Below, one piece after another: positions 9,086 through 15,548 of a stretch of 16,682 nucleotides of DNA (positions are counted from its first letter, which is position 1; each line of letters starts with the position of its first letter). Source of the DNA: Pseudobdellovibrionaceae bacterium (GTDB lineage: Bacteria; Bdellovibrionota; Bdellovibrionia; Bdellovibrionales; Bdellovibrionaceae); NCBI GenBank assembly GCA_044359815.1, contig JBIKLL010000061.1, forward strand, positions 1 through 16,682, written 5' to 3'. The notes beneath the pieces were generated by a model that saw only the letters and a list, made by a program, of their open reading frames with translations, ran no database searches and had not been told where the DNA came from. Made by a program: the position numbers and the translations under genes.

Positions 9086-10123
9086 GTCTTCAACACGTTC
9101 GCCAATCCCTATCATTTTAATAGGGAGCTTCAGTTCATTGGCTAATGCCACGGCCACTCCGCCTTTGGAGCTGCCGTCCATTTTGGTTAAAATAATCCCA
9201 CTAAGTCCAATTGCTTGATGAAATTCCTTAGCTTGAATTAAAGCATTCTGACCCGAGTTTGCGTCCAATACGATCCAGGTTTCATGAGGGGAATCGCTAA
9301 TCACCTTACCCATCACCCGCTTAACCTTTTTAAGCTCTTCCATTAAATTAGACTGAGTGTGCAGCCTTCCTGCCGTATCCAGCATAACCACATCAAAACC
9401 CTGAGCCTTGGCTTTTGAAACAGCATCAAAGGCTATGGCACTGGGATCACTGACATTGGGTGGAAAAAATATTTCGACCTGAGCACGTTCAGTCCAAGTT
9501 TTTAATTGGTTCCCAGCAGCCGCCCTGAAGGTATCGCCTGCCGCTACTAAAACTTTTTTTCCCTGCTTTGCAAACAGTGCAGCTAGCTTTCCTATGCTGG
9601 TGGTTTTACCCGCACCGTTCACGCCAACAATCATTATCACCGTGGGTTTTATGTCGCCAAAATCTATGGACACTTTTGAATCTAAAGGGGCAAAGATTTT
9701 TTCAAATTCAGATCGAAAGGCATTTTTGACCAATTCAAAATCTTTTTTTTCAGATCTGGACAACTGATCCTTAACTGCAGCCATCAGTCTTTCGACAGTG
9801 GAAGGACCAATATCACTGGTGTATAAAATCTCTTCTATTTCATCAAAATGCTGGCCTGAACTGCCAGTGAATAGCTCGTTGATTCTGCCAAACAAATGTT
9901 TACTGGTTGATTGCAGGGCTGACTTGAAAGCCGCCTGATTGGAAGTGGTCTCAGTAACTGTAGGCGCCGATTGTGCGGTGTTGGTTTCTGCTGAATTAAT
10001 ATCCGGCAAGGGATTGGCAACGGTGTTTGAAACCCTTGGTTTTTTGCGAAGCAGATAATACCAGGCCGCAATCAGGATCACAGGTCCCGTCACTGCACCC
10101 ACTAATATAAATGGATCAATCAT
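9038..10123 (-). CDS. ftsY: signal recognition particle receptor FtsY
   Basis: GVNGAGKTT, DTFRAAA, DTAGR and TKMD GTPase motifs. Coupled to smc. Confidence 0.97.
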   Translation of the reverse strand: MIDPFILVGAVTGPVILIAAWYYLLRKKPRVSNTVANPLPDINSAETNTAQSAPTVTETTSNQAAFKSALQSTSKHLFGRINELFTGSSGQHFDEIEEILYTSDIGPSTVERLMAAVKDQLSRSEKKDFELVKNAFRSEFEKIFAPLDSKVSIDFGDIKPTVIMIVGVNGAGKTTSIGKLAALFAKQGKKVLVAAGDTFRAAAGNQLKTWTERAQVEIFFPPNVSDPSAIAFDAVSKAKAQGFDVVMLDTAGRLHTQSNLMEELKKVKRVMGKVISDSPHETWIVLDANSGQNALIQAKEFHQAIGLSGIILTKMDGSSKGGVAVALANELKLPIKMIGIGERVEDLKTFASSVYIESIIG

Positions 10124-13100
10124 AGGTCTTGGAGATTTACACTAACCATGGTCGAAACGCCACGTTCTTGCATTGTGACACCGTACAGTTTTCCGGCGAC
10201 TTCCATAGTATGTTTATTATGGGTCACAACAATGATCTGAGATCTTTTGGCCATTTCACGGACTAAGTCATTAAATCTGTACACATTGGCGTCGTCCAAT
10301 GGCGCGTCAACCTCATCCAGTAAGCAATACGGAGATGGCTTAACCAGAAAGATCGAAAACACTAAAGACACTGCAGTTAAAGCTTTTTCACCACCCGACA
10401 GCAATGAAACATTTTGCATTTTTTTGCCCGGAGGTTTTGCGATGATCTCGATACCCATTTCTTGTTTTTCAGGATCCTCGATCAATTGCAATCGGGCTTC
10501 GCCCCCACCAAACAAGACTGGGAAAACCTTGGTGAATCTGTCGTTCACCAAATCAAAAGTTTCTGTAAATCTGCGCGAACAGATTTTGTTGATCCTATCG
10601 ATAACACGGTTTAACTGAGCTTTGGATTCATTCAGATCAGTTTGTTGCTGAGTTAAAAACTCATAACGCTTTTGAGTGTCTTCAAACTCATTGATAGAAG
10701 ACAAATTAACCTCACCCATTCGTCCCAGTTTTTCCTTGAGTTCTTTTAATTGAACTTCGGCAGTTTCCATACTGTGGGGTTTATCCAAATGCTGTTCAAA
10801 GCAAAGTGATAAGTCCAACATATACCGTTCGCGGATCTGATCCAGCAGATTGGTTTCTTTCATTTTAGCTTGTTCAAATTTCAGCTGAGATTCGTTCATC
10901 GTCATCATACGCTGATTGCGCTCTGTTTGCAGTTTCTGCAGCTGGCTGTCCTGGTCCACAACCTGAGCATGCAAAATCTCGTAAGTGTTTTTGCATTCAG
11001 CTAAGCGTTTTTTAGTTTCTTCAACAGACTGAATGGATTTTTCAAATTCTACTTTGCGCTCTTCAAGCTTGTACTGACTGTCTGTTAGGACAATAGAGTA
11101 CTTTTGGGATTCTTCAGAATATTTCGACAACTGACCGTTCAGTTCATCCAGTGAGCGGTTCAATAAATCAAGCTGCCCCTGCATGCCCTGAAGCTCTTGT
11201 TCCTTCTGGGCCAATTGCACACGAAGCTCGTTGGTTTCAGTTTTAGATGATTCAAAAGATAATTTTAAATTTTCCAGATCTTGCTCTAGCGTGACTGTGC
11301 TTTCAGCCAAGGAATTTTTGCGCGCTAAAATCGTCACATGTTCTGACAACAAGGTTTCTTTTTTGGCCGTCAGATTTGCCAGCTGATCCGAAATTTTTTG
11401 CACTTCCAACTGATTGCGGTGCAAAGCATATTCTGCCTGAGAAACTTCGGTTTCGGCCCGTTCTAAATCTTTTCTAAATTCTGTGACTTTGATTTCTTGT
11501 TCTGATTTTCGCTTTTGTGCGCCTTCAAAATCATGGGTGACGTTTGCCAATTGTTCCTCAAGCTTTTTCAGTGCCTGAGAAGCCAAGGCGTGTTTACCAG
11601 CCCATTCTTCTTTTTTCTGCGACAATTCCTTGATTTCGCGACGCCGTTTCAGCAATCCACTTTCAACGTCCTTGGCTGAACCACCTGTCAATATTCCATC
11701 GGCAGTCAGGGCATCGCCTTCTTTTGTAACAAAAGTCCATCCAGGGTATTCAGATCTCAGCCTCAAGGCTGTTCTGATTCCGTCGACCACGGCAACTCGG
11801 CTTAAAACCTTGTCCACCGAAGGTTTAAAATTTTCAGGAGCACTGACCACACTGTGAAGCATTTCAAGCACGCCTTCACCTGATGGGGCATTACCAATTG
11901 CAGGTTCTGAACTGCCATCAATCAAAAATGAGGTCCTACCTGCACTGTTTTGTTTCAGATAATCCACAGCCTGCAAAGTTGCTTCTTGATCCTGCGAAAA
12001 CAGCATTTGCAATCGCACGCCCAAGGCCGCTTCCATTGCTAATTCGTATTCGCTGGGGACCTCAACGACCTCAGCCACTGGGCTGAAATACACTGAACCA
12101 TCAGCTGAAATTTCGGTCTGTTTGGTTTTCTGCCAAAGCATGATGTTTTTCACGCCTTCCTCGAAACCCTCAAAATTTTGCTGCAGATTTTCCAGTCCAT
12201 ACAACCGGCTGGCTGTTTCATTTAGAGCGTCTTTGTATTCGTCGACCTGATTGCGTTTTTCGGAAATTTGTTCGTTTAAAACTTTTTTATTGGCCTCAAA
12301 CGAATCAACGTCACTGGAAAGATCAATTTGCAATTGTCTTTCTTTGTCGTATTCGGTGCCAATTTTTCGACGTCTGGTTTCAAATTCTTCTTTTTTGCTG
12401 GCAAGTTCTGTCGATACTTCTTGCTGCTTCGCCAACTGAGCTGTGGTGTCTTCGATTTGGACTTCCAGCCCCTGAATCTTGGTAGAAACCGTAGCTTCCG
12501 TCTGACCAACGGCGATAAATTCTCGCCTTTGTTGAGTCAGCTCTTGATCCATTTCTTGAATCCTGGCTTCACCCTCGTCAAAAATTGATTTCTTGGTTTC
12601 ATAGGAATTTTGAACCTGATTTTTAACTGTTAAAACATCGCTGTATTCTGTGTTTAACTTTTGGATGTCTTTTTCTAAAATTTCTTTTCGCGCTTGCTGT
12701 TCCGAAATCATCGAGCCCGTCATTTGCTCACTTCTGCGAGCCTGCTCGATTTCCATTTTTAGCTCTTGGATTTCGTATTCTTTTTTCTGTGAGCTGCTTT
12801 GAGCTTCAAAATTCTGAGTTTGCAAAACCTCGATCTGTTTTTCCTGTTCAGTGGCTTGCAACCTCAGTGTCTCGAGCTCTGCGCCAATTTCTGCTAATCG
12901 GGCTTCACTGTCGATTTCAAAAGACTGAGCTTCCTGAAATATTTTTTGAGCTTCTTCAGCGGCTTTTTTCAGATCAACAAACTGATTGCTCGATAACCAC
13001 AAATCTAAATCTTCAATCTGGCGTTTGACCTCTCGGTATCTTTCGGCTTTTTGAGCCTGTCTTTGCAAATAATCAATCTGCCTTTTAAGTTCGCCAACAA

Positions 13101-13689
13101 TGTCTTGAAGCCTTAGCAAGTTGCCTTCAGTGGTTTGCAATTTGCGCTGAGATTCGCGCTTACGCATTTTAAATTTTGTGATTCCAGCGGCTTCCTCGAT
13201 CAAATGTTTTCGATCCTCGGGTTTTGCCGTAATAATCCGGCCAATCATCCCCTGCTGAATAATTGAAAACCCTTTTGCGCCAGCACCGGTATCCATAAAG
13301 ATTTCTTGGATGTCTTTCAGTCTGGCAGGTTCTTTGTTGATATAATATTCAGATTCGCCATCACGGTGTAATTTACGAGTCACCATGATTTCAGAGTGTT
13401 TTAAATACTGAGACGGAAAAGGCCCCCCGTCGTTTTCTAGGGTCAACGACACTTCAGCCATTCCCATTGGGGCATAGCCTTCAGCACCGGCAAAGATCAC
13501 ATCAGTCATAGTAGAAGCTCTGAGATCCTTGGCAGACATGTCCCCCATGACCCACACCAATGCATCAACTATGTTTGATTTTCCACAACCATTTGGTCCA
13601 ACTATACCTGTGATACCAGCATCAAACTGAATGACGGTACGATCTTTAAATGATTTAAATCCGACGAGCTCGATTTTTTTAATTCTCAA
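10120..13689 (-). CDS. smc: chromosome segregation protein SMC
   Basis: Walker A GPNGCGKSN, long coiled coils, hinge, LSGGE signature, LDEVDA Walker B. TTG start with AGGAG RBS. Confidence 0.98.
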   Translation of the reverse strand: MRIKKIELVGFKSFKDRTVIQFDAGITGIVGPNGCGKSNIVDALVWVMGDMSAKDLRASTMTDVIFAGAEGYAPMGMAEVSLTLENDGGPFPSQYLKHSEIMVTRKLHRDGESEYYINKEPARLKDIQEIFMDTGAGAKGFSIIQQGMIGRIITAKPEDRKHLIEEAAGITKFKMRKRESQRKLQTTEGNLLRLQDIVGELKRQIDYLQRQAQKAERYREVKRQIEDLDLWLSSNQFVDLKKAAEEAQKIFQEAQSFEIDSEARLAEIGAELETLRLQATEQEKQIEVLQTQNFEAQSSSQKKEYEIQELKMEIEQARRSEQMTGSMISEQQARKEILEKDIQKLNTEYSDVLTVKNQVQNSYETKKSIFDEGEARIQEMDQELTQQRREFIAVGQTEATVSTKIQGLEVQIEDTTAQLAKQQEVSTELASKKEEFETRRRKIGTEYDKERQLQIDLSSDVDSFEANKKVLNEQISEKRNQVDEYKDALNETASRLYGLENLQQNFEGFEEGVKNIMLWQKTKQTEISADGSVYFSPVAEVVEVPSEYELAMEAALGVRLQMLFSQDQEATLQAVDYLKQNSAGRTSFLIDGSSEPAIGNAPSGEGVLEMLHSVVSAPENFKPSVDKVLSRVAVVDGIRTALRLRSEYPGWTFVTKEGDALTADGILTGGSAKDVESGLLKRRREIKELSQKKEEWAGKHALASQALKKLEEQLANVTHDFEGAQKRKSEQEIKVTEFRKDLERAETEVSQAEYALHRNQLEVQKISDQLANLTAKKETLLSEHVTILARKNSLAESTVTLEQDLENLKLSFESSKTETNELRVQLAQKEQELQGMQGQLDLLNRSLDELNGQLSKYSEESQKYSIVLTDSQYKLEERKVEFEKSIQSVEETKKRLAECKNTYEILHAQVVDQDSQLQKLQTERNQRMMTMNESQLKFEQAKMKETNLLDQIRERYMLDLSLCFEQHLDKPHSMETAEVQLKELKEKLGRMGEVNLSSINEFEDTQKRYEFLTQQQTDLNESKAQLNRVIDRINKICSRRFTETFDLVNDRFTKVFPVLFGGGEARLQLIEDPEKQEMGIEIIAKPPGKKMQNVSLLSGGEKALTAVSLVFSIFLVKPSPYCLLDEVDAPLDDANVYRFNDLVREMAKRSQIIVVTHNKHTMEVAGKLYGVTMQERGVSTMVSVNLQDL

Positions 13690-13825
13690 GGAAAATCTCC
13701 TTAGATTTTCAGGTTGGACAAAGGCCTAGATAGTTTTTACTGTGTCTTGTCTTAAGCCCAGCAGTCAACTGACTTATTGTAAGATGATTTCATTTTAAGC
13801 AGCCCCTTGCTGCGCCGCATTTCGC

Positions 13826-14236
13826 CCCTAATGGCCGCGGTCTACCTCGTTTTTAACAAAATCAGCATCCCTTATTTTATTTTTTTTGGCCACAGACAGT
13901 GTACCAACCTCTGGCATCGAATGATTTAAAACAAATTAGATTTTTATATTTTGAGGGCACGTCGAGCGAGCGCGCGGTGCATATCTCGTGATGCGTAAAT
14001 GCAAAGATAATTTTTTTTACTATTTTTAGACACTCGCTAACGGCCGCGGGCTCATCTCTCGTATTGATTCATTTGGATTAATCAATTTTACGATTAATAA
14101 ATTATCATAAAACTGATTAATCCAAATGACTCAACACCAGATATGCCCCGCGCGCTCGCTGCATGTGTCTAAAAACAGTAAAAACAAATTACCTTTGCAT
14201 TTATGCAATACGAGAGATGAGACCGCGGAAGGTAGG
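13826..14236. repeat. A/B motif repeat element, locus 2, containing a ~255-bp imperfect palindrome (13973-14227)
   Basis: Minus-strand copies: degenerate A 13826-13853, B 13966-13993, A 14036-14066. Plus-strand copies: B 14132-14159, A 14206-14236. Inner stem 14069-14094/14104-14129 is 24/26 complementary. Confidence 0.9.
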
Positions 14237-14240
14237 GAAA

Positions 14241-15548
14241 TTAGTAAAGCTTTACTTCGACCCGACGGTTCTGAGACCGCCCCTGGTAATTGCCATTATC
14301 AGCAATAGGACGAAGCTCACCGTAACCGATGGCTTCCACAGTGACCTTGCCTAGCTTCACATTTTGTCTGATATGGTTTCTGATTGCTTGAGCTCTAAGC
14401 TCACTCAGTTTTTGATTGTACTGATTGGATCCCACTGAATCTGTGTGTCCCTCGATCACGATTTTTTTAACGTCTTTACGACTGCTTAAAATATCTGCCA
14501 AAATTAAATCCAAACGATCCAGGGTATCCTTGGAATTACCCGCCAGCTCAGCAGTTCCAGTGATAAAATTTAAACCTGGTAATTCAATTTCTTCAAACTG
14601 TGGGGCTTGCGCAGGTTTCACCTTTACGAGCTCTGATTGTTTTCGCCACAGAGGACCAAATGTATAGTTGAGGCCCGCATAAATTCTCCAGTCAGGTGAA
14701 GAATTGCCGTGCTCAAGCTCTGTGCCCCCACCTGCGTGAACGGCTAAATTGGTATTAATGTCGTGCTTTACACCGGCGATCAGTTCACGGCTGGATAAAT
14801 CCCTGTCAGTTTGATTGGTACCCGTGCGGGTAGCCGCCGTGCTGGTGAAAATCTCGAAAATCAATTTCGTATCTATATCTGTTAACAAATAACTGGCAGC
14901 CACTGACGCCAAATAAGAATCACCCACAGGGTCAAGGTTTAAACCTGCAATGGGGGCTCCAGGTCTGCGCCATCTGTATCCAGCGTTAGCGCCTAATTGC
15001 CAATTGTTAAAGGTCGTATCATAGACAAATTCCAAGCTGGTTGAGGGACCCGCGCCCGATCCCGCAAAGGGGTTGTTTTGAATTTGGTTAAAATTTTGAG
15101 TTAGGACTGCTGCCCAACCGCCCTTGGAATCACCATAAAATTTATATTTAGTGTTCAATCTGATTTCAGTTAAGCCGTCTGAATAAATTCCTAAATTGTT
15201 TGTATTGTCAGCCTTGCTGCGAATCACATAGGGAAAGCTGATCCCCACATCCCAATTTTTAGCCAAACCCAAACCGAAATTCAGATCAGAGGAAGTCATC
15301 GAATCATTAAATTCTGTTCTGGATTGTGAAACCGAACCTGTAGGGGCCGGAAAATACGGCAATGTGTTCACCGCATGATTTATAAAAATACCTAAATTAA
15401 AAACACCGGGTTCTAGGGTTTCTGAGGATTGAACTGTGACAAAGTCTATACCATTTGTAGTGGGATTAAAATTCTGAGCATCACTGCCGATGACGTTGGC
15501 CTGCGCCTGAGAAATCATCAAAAAAATTAAAACCAAAACTTTGCGCAT
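14241..15548 (-). CDS. OmpA family outer membrane protein
   Basis: Signal peptide, beta-barrel-like N-terminal region, C-terminal peptidoglycan-binding motif EGHTD...NQKLSELRA...NRRVE. Confidence 0.92.
   Translation of the reverse strand: MRKVLVLIFLMISQAQANVIGSDAQNFNPTTNGIDFVTVQSSETLEPGVFNLGIFINHAVNTLPYFPAPTGSVSQSRTEFNDSMTSSDLNFGLGLAKNWDVGISFPYVIRSKADNTNNLGIYSDGLTEIRLNTKYKFYGDSKGGWAAVLTQNFNQIQNNPFAGSGAGPSTSLEFVYDTTFNNWQLGANAGYRWRRPGAPIAGLNLDPVGDSYLASVAASYLLTDIDTKLIFEIFTSTAATRTGTNQTDRDLSSRELIAGVKHDINTNLAVHAGGGTELEHGNSSPDWRIYAGLNYTFGPLWRKQSELVKVKPAQAPQFEEIELPGLNFITGTAELAGNSKDTLDRLDLILADILSSRKDVKKIVIEGHTDSVGSNQYNQKLSELRAQAIRNHIRQNVKLGKVTVEAIGYGELRPIADNGNYQGRSQNRRVEVKLY

Follow-up and report, generated by a model that had tools for sequence, protein, structure and literature searches.

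How does a long palindrome come to hold two unlike motifs that always face each other across its arms, and what keeps it in this state? The question is posed by a ~255-bp non-coding element in the 2.95-Mb, 91% complete genome of a Pseudobdellovibrionaceae bacterium (GCA_044359815.1; G000 below), located in the 16,682-nt stretch of contig JBIKLL010000061.1 (C63) that was analyzed here and is referred to as the window.

An imperfect palindrome behind an OmpA-domain gene

The element lies between smc (10120..13689, minus strand; TIGR02168 over the cut-off), its downstream neighbor, and an OmpA-domain gene (14241..15548, minus strand; PF00691), the stop codon of which abuts it; both genes are outside the element. 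Its left terminal arm (13919..13965) is a decayed, AT-rich remnant without the arm anchor, and the ompA-side partner of this arm has been lost in this lineage; in a contig from a relative (run X13), an arm matching the remnant adjoins the ompA stop. Next come outer motif B (13966..13993, minus strand; PWM score 44), the 5' half of an outer core that folds on the plus strand; the 38-nt spacer S1 (13994..14031), which is paired to S2 with fixed mismatches; and inner motif A (14032..14066, minus strand; PWM score 67), the 3' half of an inner core that folds on the minus strand. The center is an AT-rich stem with an apical loop, of the 65-nt type (14067..14131; loop at ~14095-14103). It is followed by inner motif B (14132..14159, plus strand; PWM score 55), which supplies the 5' half of this minus-strand inner core; by the 46-nt spacer S2 (14160..14205); and by a truncated outer motif A (14206..14227, plus strand) that scores 28 compared to 60-67 in intact copies, with the right terminal arm missing. 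The window copy is a short-type double minus the right arm and half of the outer A. The right half of a second copy, of the long type, is found at the start of the window, where it is cut by the contig end (1..260, plus strand: B(+) at 53-80, a 102-nt spacer, A(+) at 183-217 and a terminal arm).

On recounting, the pairing described in the initial annotation of the window proved exact: 14069-14094 and 14104-14129 pair at 24/26 positions, 13992-14033 and 14165-14207 differ by 3 mismatches and 1 bulge, and four of the five spacer mismatches are G-T pairs on the minus strand. The motif order, A(-)/B(+) inside and B(-)/A(+) outside, was reproduced by a PWM scan, in which outer A matches only to ~14227; 13 nt separate this position from the OmpA stop (14241-14243), close to the ~14 nt given before, and the element starts 7 nt to the left of the previously assigned coordinate, preceded by the decayed arm. 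Folding of both strands, which had been proposed as a check, gave -79.8 kcal/mol (z -13.5) for DNA and, for RNA, -145.9 on the minus and -125.4 on the plus strand; none of 200 shuffles folds as well as the palindrome, with z from -13.5 to -15.8 across foldings.

The junctions of the palindrome are real and not an assembly artefact because contigs from two independent runs (X1 and X2) cross the boundary between each flank and the outer motif without a single difference; a third run (X4) covers the left flank only, and the element is nowhere spanned in full by one contig. The sources of the best-matching contigs are lake-water metagenomes.

A high-copy repeat family in the same genome

A profile scan of G000 detected 91 clusters comprising 132 A and 101 short B motifs; a further 28 B motifs are long, each bearing a small inserted hairpin. 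A fuller list comprises 98 clusters; with seven lone, weak matches to the B head counted as chance, it gives ~90 sites, including 36 four-motif doubles and 14 singles. Six further single copies are older. The initial annotation held that A is always opposite B, an arrangement that random A/A, B/B and A/B pairing in other copies would contradict. Random pairing is not what the copies show: across G000, facing pairs are A:B in 98 of 100, and the two exceptions, in C34 and C38, resemble internal deletions. Successive motifs on one strand alternate 106 times out of 107; in the odd case, C22, both outer sides bear a B-type motif. Many contigs of this assembly end at the repeat.

A second repeat family of G000 (48 core matches; for example, C101:4318-4528, C104:16882-17077, C109:15387-15589 and C2:2332-2531) has a different, GGA-rich core enclosed by arms that share homology with the A/B-family arms. 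Elsewhere in the genome, an arm pair surrounds an empty center (C105:1105-1182), and short tandem repeats holding the arm start lie beside an unrelated core (C56:2380-2634).

Two strands of one core, nested in opposite orientations

Motifs A and B are two unequal strands of one folded core, not swapped motifs. On the strand that reads reverse B and then A, they form a single helix that contains G-T pairs and is interrupted by fixed internal loops, and their variable positions covary. The suggestion that defined mismatches are built into the structure was borne out, with one strand folding better in 96 of 96 pairs under DNA parameters and in 95 of 96 under RNA parameters. A single copy consists of arm, reverse B, stem-loop, A and arm; a double is one such unit placed upside-down in the tip of another. 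This nesting is apparent because some copies keep only the outer pair round a short loop (C5:4280, C110:637) and because the inner unit's own arms persist in long-type doubles. The A/B 'swap', previously put down to selection or a specific mechanism, requires neither: opposite nesting alone yields A(-)/B(+) inside and B(-)/A(+) outside, and hence one well-folded core on each DNA strand.

Alternation is seen in all 19 spacers of the long type, even though in the four complete cases the inner arms are perfect over 32-59 bp. This is a hint that the antiparallel order is under selection, shared descent being the alternative. The coincidence of the G-U-rich strand with that of ompA and smc, to which attention had been drawn, is incidental: doubles are 6 sense and 5 antisense, and, across genomes, the folded strand of singles is mostly antisense (42/58; see below).

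Three families of the order share the core

A search with exact or near-exact motifs yielded nothing in 181 family genomes, and a near-exact search of 60 genomes gave weak matches of 22-34 nt only, in 6 of the 60. Model R1 found no match in 150 genomes of G000's own family and a single one in a phylum sample of 150, in genome G053, where a DNA search then revealed 21 places. Model R2, built from 19 G053 and 4 G000 cores, recovers the inner core of the window on the minus strand (14024-14174; 69.6 bits) and matches 18 of the 109 genomes of family f6, 2 of 150 other genomes from family f1, and 4 of the 15 sampled from family f2. The core is present in 24 genomes besides G000, from three families of the order, and sequences from 20 of the 24 were inspected; R2 scoring covered 26-36 candidates per genome. 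Chance matches that lacked the core or the arms (L041; L048, L049, L052, L054; G486; L294, L295) were discarded. No true copy was detected in four scans of viral contigs, and the plasmids and phages searched contain none.

The collection of homologous palindromes, suggested at the outset as a test of covariation, shows that the core is kept across families with compensatory changes. The alignment features a near-invariant A-G mismatch between two U-A pairs, two C-G pairs present in all 23 rows, and a pair that is A-T in G000 and G-C in G053. Paired cells amount to 87.8%, compared to 38-58% in slid controls, for a structure drawn from the same sequences.

Copy number of the core in the relatives ranges from 1 to ~50. 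In the closed genome G415, 46 matches to the left half and 52 to the right half were counted, and G053, which is 99% complete, has 33 matches. In most genomes examined, the core sits inside arms of 40-80 bp that are largely unrelated between copies: arm identity between copies is about that of shuffled arms in G053 (0.543 vs 0.521), G415 (0.535 vs 0.523) and G354 (0.551 vs 0.497). In G415, the inner cores are 96% alike across 36 copies, with arms of 46-81 bp in 35 of the 36, and one arm class has common outer tips; arms are 36-59 bp in 25 of 26 copies of G354, and short, 7-27 bp by ungapped extension, in 14 of 14 copies of G439. Five or six copies in G415 (L280-L284, L271) carry a conserved ~125-nt multi-hairpin insert in the B strand, which makes a four-way junction and has no Rfam match, and in L271 and L195 (G415:C1:234420-234552, 904971) the right half and the arm are tandemly duplicated.

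At one orthologous site, G477 has the core, G475 has another core enclosed by long arms, and G476 and G478 have nothing; G474 is rearranged there. The G475 element (L226, G475:C104:4770-5140) is a third core in ~125-bp arms. The arm could be an inverted copy of its target: the G477 arm takes in ~14 nt of the gene end, but the empty sites are too diverged for comparison, and in G000 the arms are mutually homologous.

Paired zones diverge fastest and mismatched zones slowest

Arms were compared over their first 45 nt in 47 complete elements of G000, four others lacking the arm anchor. The two arms of a copy are 95-96% identical, compared to 73-79% between copies, and departures from the consensus that are common to both arms number 217, against 49 with shuffled partners. 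The same pattern holds for the center arms (97% within a copy, 68% between copies). Spacers S1 and S2 are 96% and 94% alike between copies, respectively, and 86% alike to each other within a copy; within the short type, they differ by 0.018-0.037 per site and are about as conserved as B. Differences per site amount to 0.005 for inner A, 0.024 for inner B, 0.06-0.13 for the center and 0.18 for the arm; divergence between copies is fastest in the perfectly paired zones (0.06-0.18 per site) and slowest in the mismatched ones (0.005-0.05). The apical loop is inverted in 3 of 46 classifiable centers (16 of 62 were unclassified). Arm covariation is no evidence of function because copying at the DNA level alone can yield it; according to two reports, template switching homogenizes arms and inverts spacers (PMC8604942; PMC8794818).

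Nine metagenome contigs represent a sister lineage in which the flanking DNA is 87-96% alike. All eight comparable sites, scored by eye, carry a copy in both lineages and thus give no sign of recent transposition in this one; three of the eight are flipped and seven differ in interior type. At the window's own site in another relative (run X13), B instead of A lies beside ompA, so that orientation differs at 4 of 9 shared sites. The interior swaps could in part be mis-assembly, given that short reads can mix interiors. Copy C83:701 looks chimeric, its arms matching two other loci: in C83:701-1069 and in C95:1858-2122, the left and right arms match separate loci (C90/C47 and C102/C9, respectively), as mis-joins or real rearrangements between copies would produce.

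Preference for convergent gene ends

At the 54 sites of G000 with genes on both sides, as delineated by a simple ORF caller, the genes are convergent in 35, tandem in 16 and divergent in 3; the convergent excess over background gaps (170/852) is highly significant (p 7e-12). The tips mostly lie 1-22 nt past a stop codon, with no fixed register. No replichore bias was found in G000 (singles 6 vs 5, doubles 18 vs 13) or in G415 (16/36). No fixed bases indicative of target duplication were seen beyond 72 strong tips, the empty sites being too diverged for comparison at the base level.

Where a single copy is flanked by co-oriented genes, its folded strand is more often the antisense one, in 42 of 58 copies (G415 11/14, G053 7/8, G354 8/13, G439 4/5, others 8/12, G000 4/4 and 0/2), with a pooled p of 0.0009 for copies that are not independent; taken alone, no genome reaches significance (p 0.057, 0.070, 0.58).

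No mover among the known candidates

No mover was found for the repeat. G000 has nine Y1 matches. A RAYT-like Y1 gene (72.5 bits, with a cut-off of 80) lies between inverted copies of its own GTAG-type REP (L001, G000:C8:9475-10290), a separate family with 54 copies in G000, mostly doublets. Eight close Y1-domain paralogs of ~211 aa (L002-L008 and G000:C8:23571-23774) have a common AT-rich upstream stretch, with hairpin ends not seen; a perfect 7-nt tandem array lies upstream of one of them (L002:1-130, at the start of G000:C23), and a suspected match of the arm to the region upstream of the 211-aa genes was not borne out. No core lies within ~1.5 kb of 28 Y1-gene loci in six genomes, although with G000 91% complete a Y1 neighbor could have been missed there. 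G053 has no Y1 gene at 99% completeness, despite its 33 core matches, and G414 has Y1 genes and no core match. An IS200/IS605 derivative (PATE-like) was considered and rejected given that the arm HMM and the core model both miss the Y1-gene flanks.

Searches of G000 gave no match to IS630, IS4/5 or IS110 and no reverse transcriptase; the genome has one IS3, the end of which is by eye weakly similar to the repeat tip, and only two tyrosine recombinases, XerC/D-like by eye. No small GIY-YIG (Ssn-type) gene was detected in G053 or G415 (family f6), each of which has one GIY-YIG match, in a frame of 577-627 aa. The 567 ORFs neighboring the cores include no protein family common to more than three genomes and none that is transposase-like by eye, and no gene-carrying loop was found among the G000 copies or the G415 half-sites.

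Similar to REPINs and BIMEs but a member of neither

The repeat resembles REPIN/RAYT systems, as described in PMC3116915 and PMC8266576, in being a high-copy, extragenic, inverted doublet that folds as a long hairpin with compensatory changes, in inserting into existing copies, and in its strand-specific fold with conserved mismatches and a sequence-free stem. However, the A and B profiles contain neither GTAG nor a short palindrome that folds by itself, whereas the host RAYT's own repeat, used as a positive control, shows GTAG on the reverse strand. The ends are unequal and jointly make up one internal-loop core; arms of 40-80 bp lie outside that core; no core was seen to have a RAYT next to it; and the REP family of the host RAYT is a separate one. 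According to PMC8266576, Escherichia coli BIMEs (the y-z1, y-z2 mosaics) likewise consist of two unlike but related motifs in fixed inverse pairing that alternate within higher-order units. A BIME, however, is a tandem series of REPs that each fold alone; in the present repeat the units are nested, none is a REP, and neither A nor B folds well without the other. Thus the repeat works like a REPIN or BIME but is no member of either, given that a GTAG REP and a linked RAYT are both missing.

The TwoAYGGAY motif (RF01731) is similar in having a structured core, a long basal stem, variable copy number, opposed doublets and no known mover; in Pseudomonas, according to bioRxiv 10.64898/2026.09.22.753630, copy number varies and divergent doublets form. 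The repeat has no AYGGAY loops and no Rfam match, and its GNA tips are of the DNA type, so that the likeness is one of layout only. Bacterial MITEs, such as ERIC, Correia and RUP, are non-coding, have inverted ends and lie just behind stop codons, and the repeat shares these features, with common outer tips in some copies. In contrast to MITEs, its conservation is central rather than terminal, no fixed target duplication was seen, and no matching DDE transposase was identified among the IS families searched; as for terminal repeats, an eroded common tip is seen in G000 and in the one arm class of G415, the arms being otherwise unrelated in G053 and G415. The NTS repeats of Ssn nucleases are, according to PMC11893778, oriented hairpin repeats read as single-stranded (ss) DNA on one strand only, but the repeat described here is much longer, and G053 and G415 have no small Ssn-type gene. 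Template switching at quasi-palindromes, as outlined in PMC8794818 and PMC8604942, accounts for the homogenization of the arms and the inversion of spacers and loops; it is a mutational process rather than a family and leaves the sparing of the core mismatches unexplained. By eye, any likeness to dif sites, K-turns, loop E, ssoA and the hammerhead and hairpin ribozymes was rejected. The repeat is not described in the main texts of the open-licence literature searched; the supplements of bioRxiv 10.64898/2026.09.22.753630 may list such motifs.

Single-stranded DNA or RNA

On the folded strand of 95 cores from 19 genomes, the tip loop is GNA in 34, GNRA in 17, GNYA in 13 and other in 30; one core has such a loop on the opposite strand, and UNCG is absent. 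These counts are not independent, 44 of the 95 coming from G415. GNA tips occur in 11 of the 19 genomes, with 2/16 in G053; in the later analysis of G354 they number 22 of 26, with all four middle bases, and in that of G439 0/14. The abundant G000 copies have long AT-rich tips without GNA. According to PMC13037366, only GNA triloops form a DNA mini-hairpin, the RNA versions being far less stable. With tips that are often GNA and a folded strand that tends to be antisense, the evidence moderately favors a core that acts as ssDNA rather than RNA.

That the palindrome is a copy of a high-copy non-coding repeat with two oppositely nested cores is plain from its anatomy and spread. We lean towards the reading that the core is, in addition, recognized as folded ssDNA by a putative DNA-processing enzyme that mobilizes it in trans. 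Template switching or conversion between the arms would keep the arms perfect and flip the core, and interiors may be overwritten from other copies; the mismatched core would be kept by selection, with a protein reading the folded state as RAYT reads the REP bulge; and new copies would insert immediately after stop codons and into the tips of existing ones. Of the possibilities raised in the initial annotation, a folded ssDNA with the logic of attC sites or REPINs or else a rod-like RNA, the REPIN-like form is the best reading, the attC form fails, and RNA is a weaker rival.

More speculatively, and with considerable doubt on our part, the core could be the recognition site of a new ssDNA-processing system of this order, with an enzyme that belongs neither to the Y1 or Ssn families nor to the common DDE ones. 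Such an enzyme would read the folded core and drive its copying, the core being inserted and an inverted arm of ~50 bp built around it; cores at old sites would be overwritten or flipped, and the arms could carry other cores, making the repeat a self-maintaining 'inside-out' mobile element.

A structured RNA module is an equally tentative alternative. The core would be a TwoAYGGAY-like structure borne by a long basal stem at the 3' ends of genes, serving in mRNA stability, antisense control or as a protein sponge, and spreading as a mobile element. The strand gap is indeed wider under RNA than under DNA parameters, with 308 vs 82 G-U pairs; the GNRA tips, the four-way junction in the G415 insert, the convergent excess, the arms in common with the second G000 family, and the variable number and divergent doublets of the Pseudomonas TwoAYGGAY (bioRxiv 10.64898/2026.09.22.753630) are all compatible with it. 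However, GNA and GNYA tips outnumber GNRA by 47 to 17, with no UNCG, the folded strand would mostly be absent from read-through mRNA in tandem contexts, and orientation flips at shared sites. Furthermore, no promoter-like site was found in 13690-14300, and no Rfam family matched at the gathering score, the matches below it being to generic hairpin models.

Less probable readings: domestication, neutral persistence and others

Somewhat less probable still is a domesticated repeat, the extruded hairpin of which a host nucleoid, topoisomerase or repair factor would use at convergent gene ends, with conversion and no transposase. The age of the sites, which are common to lineages 87-96% alike in flanking DNA, the strong convergent bias and the diverged cores that G053 retains without any Y1 gene fit this reading, as does the scarcity of the SbcD-type hairpin nuclease: SbcD (TIGR00619) is over the cut-off in 1 of 61 genomes (G000 and 60 relatives) and was not found in G000, so this lineage may tolerate long palindromes, as a permissive background only. 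Against domestication stand the patchy spread of the core (18/109; 2/150), its copy number of 1 to ~50 and the filled and empty sites within a genus, and a lack of SbcD that is lineage-wide does not explain the presence of the repeat.

The A/B mismatches could also have no reader and persist simply as perfect palindromes of 300-400 bp get deleted, the alternating order being a founder effect. Spacers S1 and S2, which keep fixed mismatches and are about as conserved as B in the short type, are in line with such persistence, and the doubles may stem from two founders. However, the core retains the same paired and unpaired positions in all three families despite turnover of the arms, with a compensatory A-T to G-C change and a near-invariant A-G mismatch; neutral interruptions would preserve neither identity nor polarity. 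This explanation is largely refuted and, in our view, very improbable.

Typical attC sites have RYYYAAC and GTTRRRY core sites, a cassette array and IntI. Motif A ends in a GTTAGC stretch that we take to resemble an attC core site, strand-specific extrahelical bases follow a similar logic, and many contigs break at the repeat, but an integron attC-type site or an assembly artefact is already refuted and can practically be dismissed: B has no complementary TAAC, the copies are dispersed in both orientations and form no cassette array, the only two tyrosine recombinases are XerC/D-like by eye, both junctions are confirmed by independent runs, and a closed genome has 46-52 copies.

Implications

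On its own, the window locus is ordinary, one decayed copy among ~90. Small repeats of bacteria mostly have conserved ends and a known transposase. In contrast, this family has a conserved middle, perfect ~50-bp arms of free sequence, flips and exchange of interiors at fixed sites, and no recognizable mover. Given the patchy spread of the core (18/109 in f6) and the availability of a closed genome with near-identical cores, the mover should be findable by profiling, and the family would allow the maintenance of long palindromes to be tested directly.
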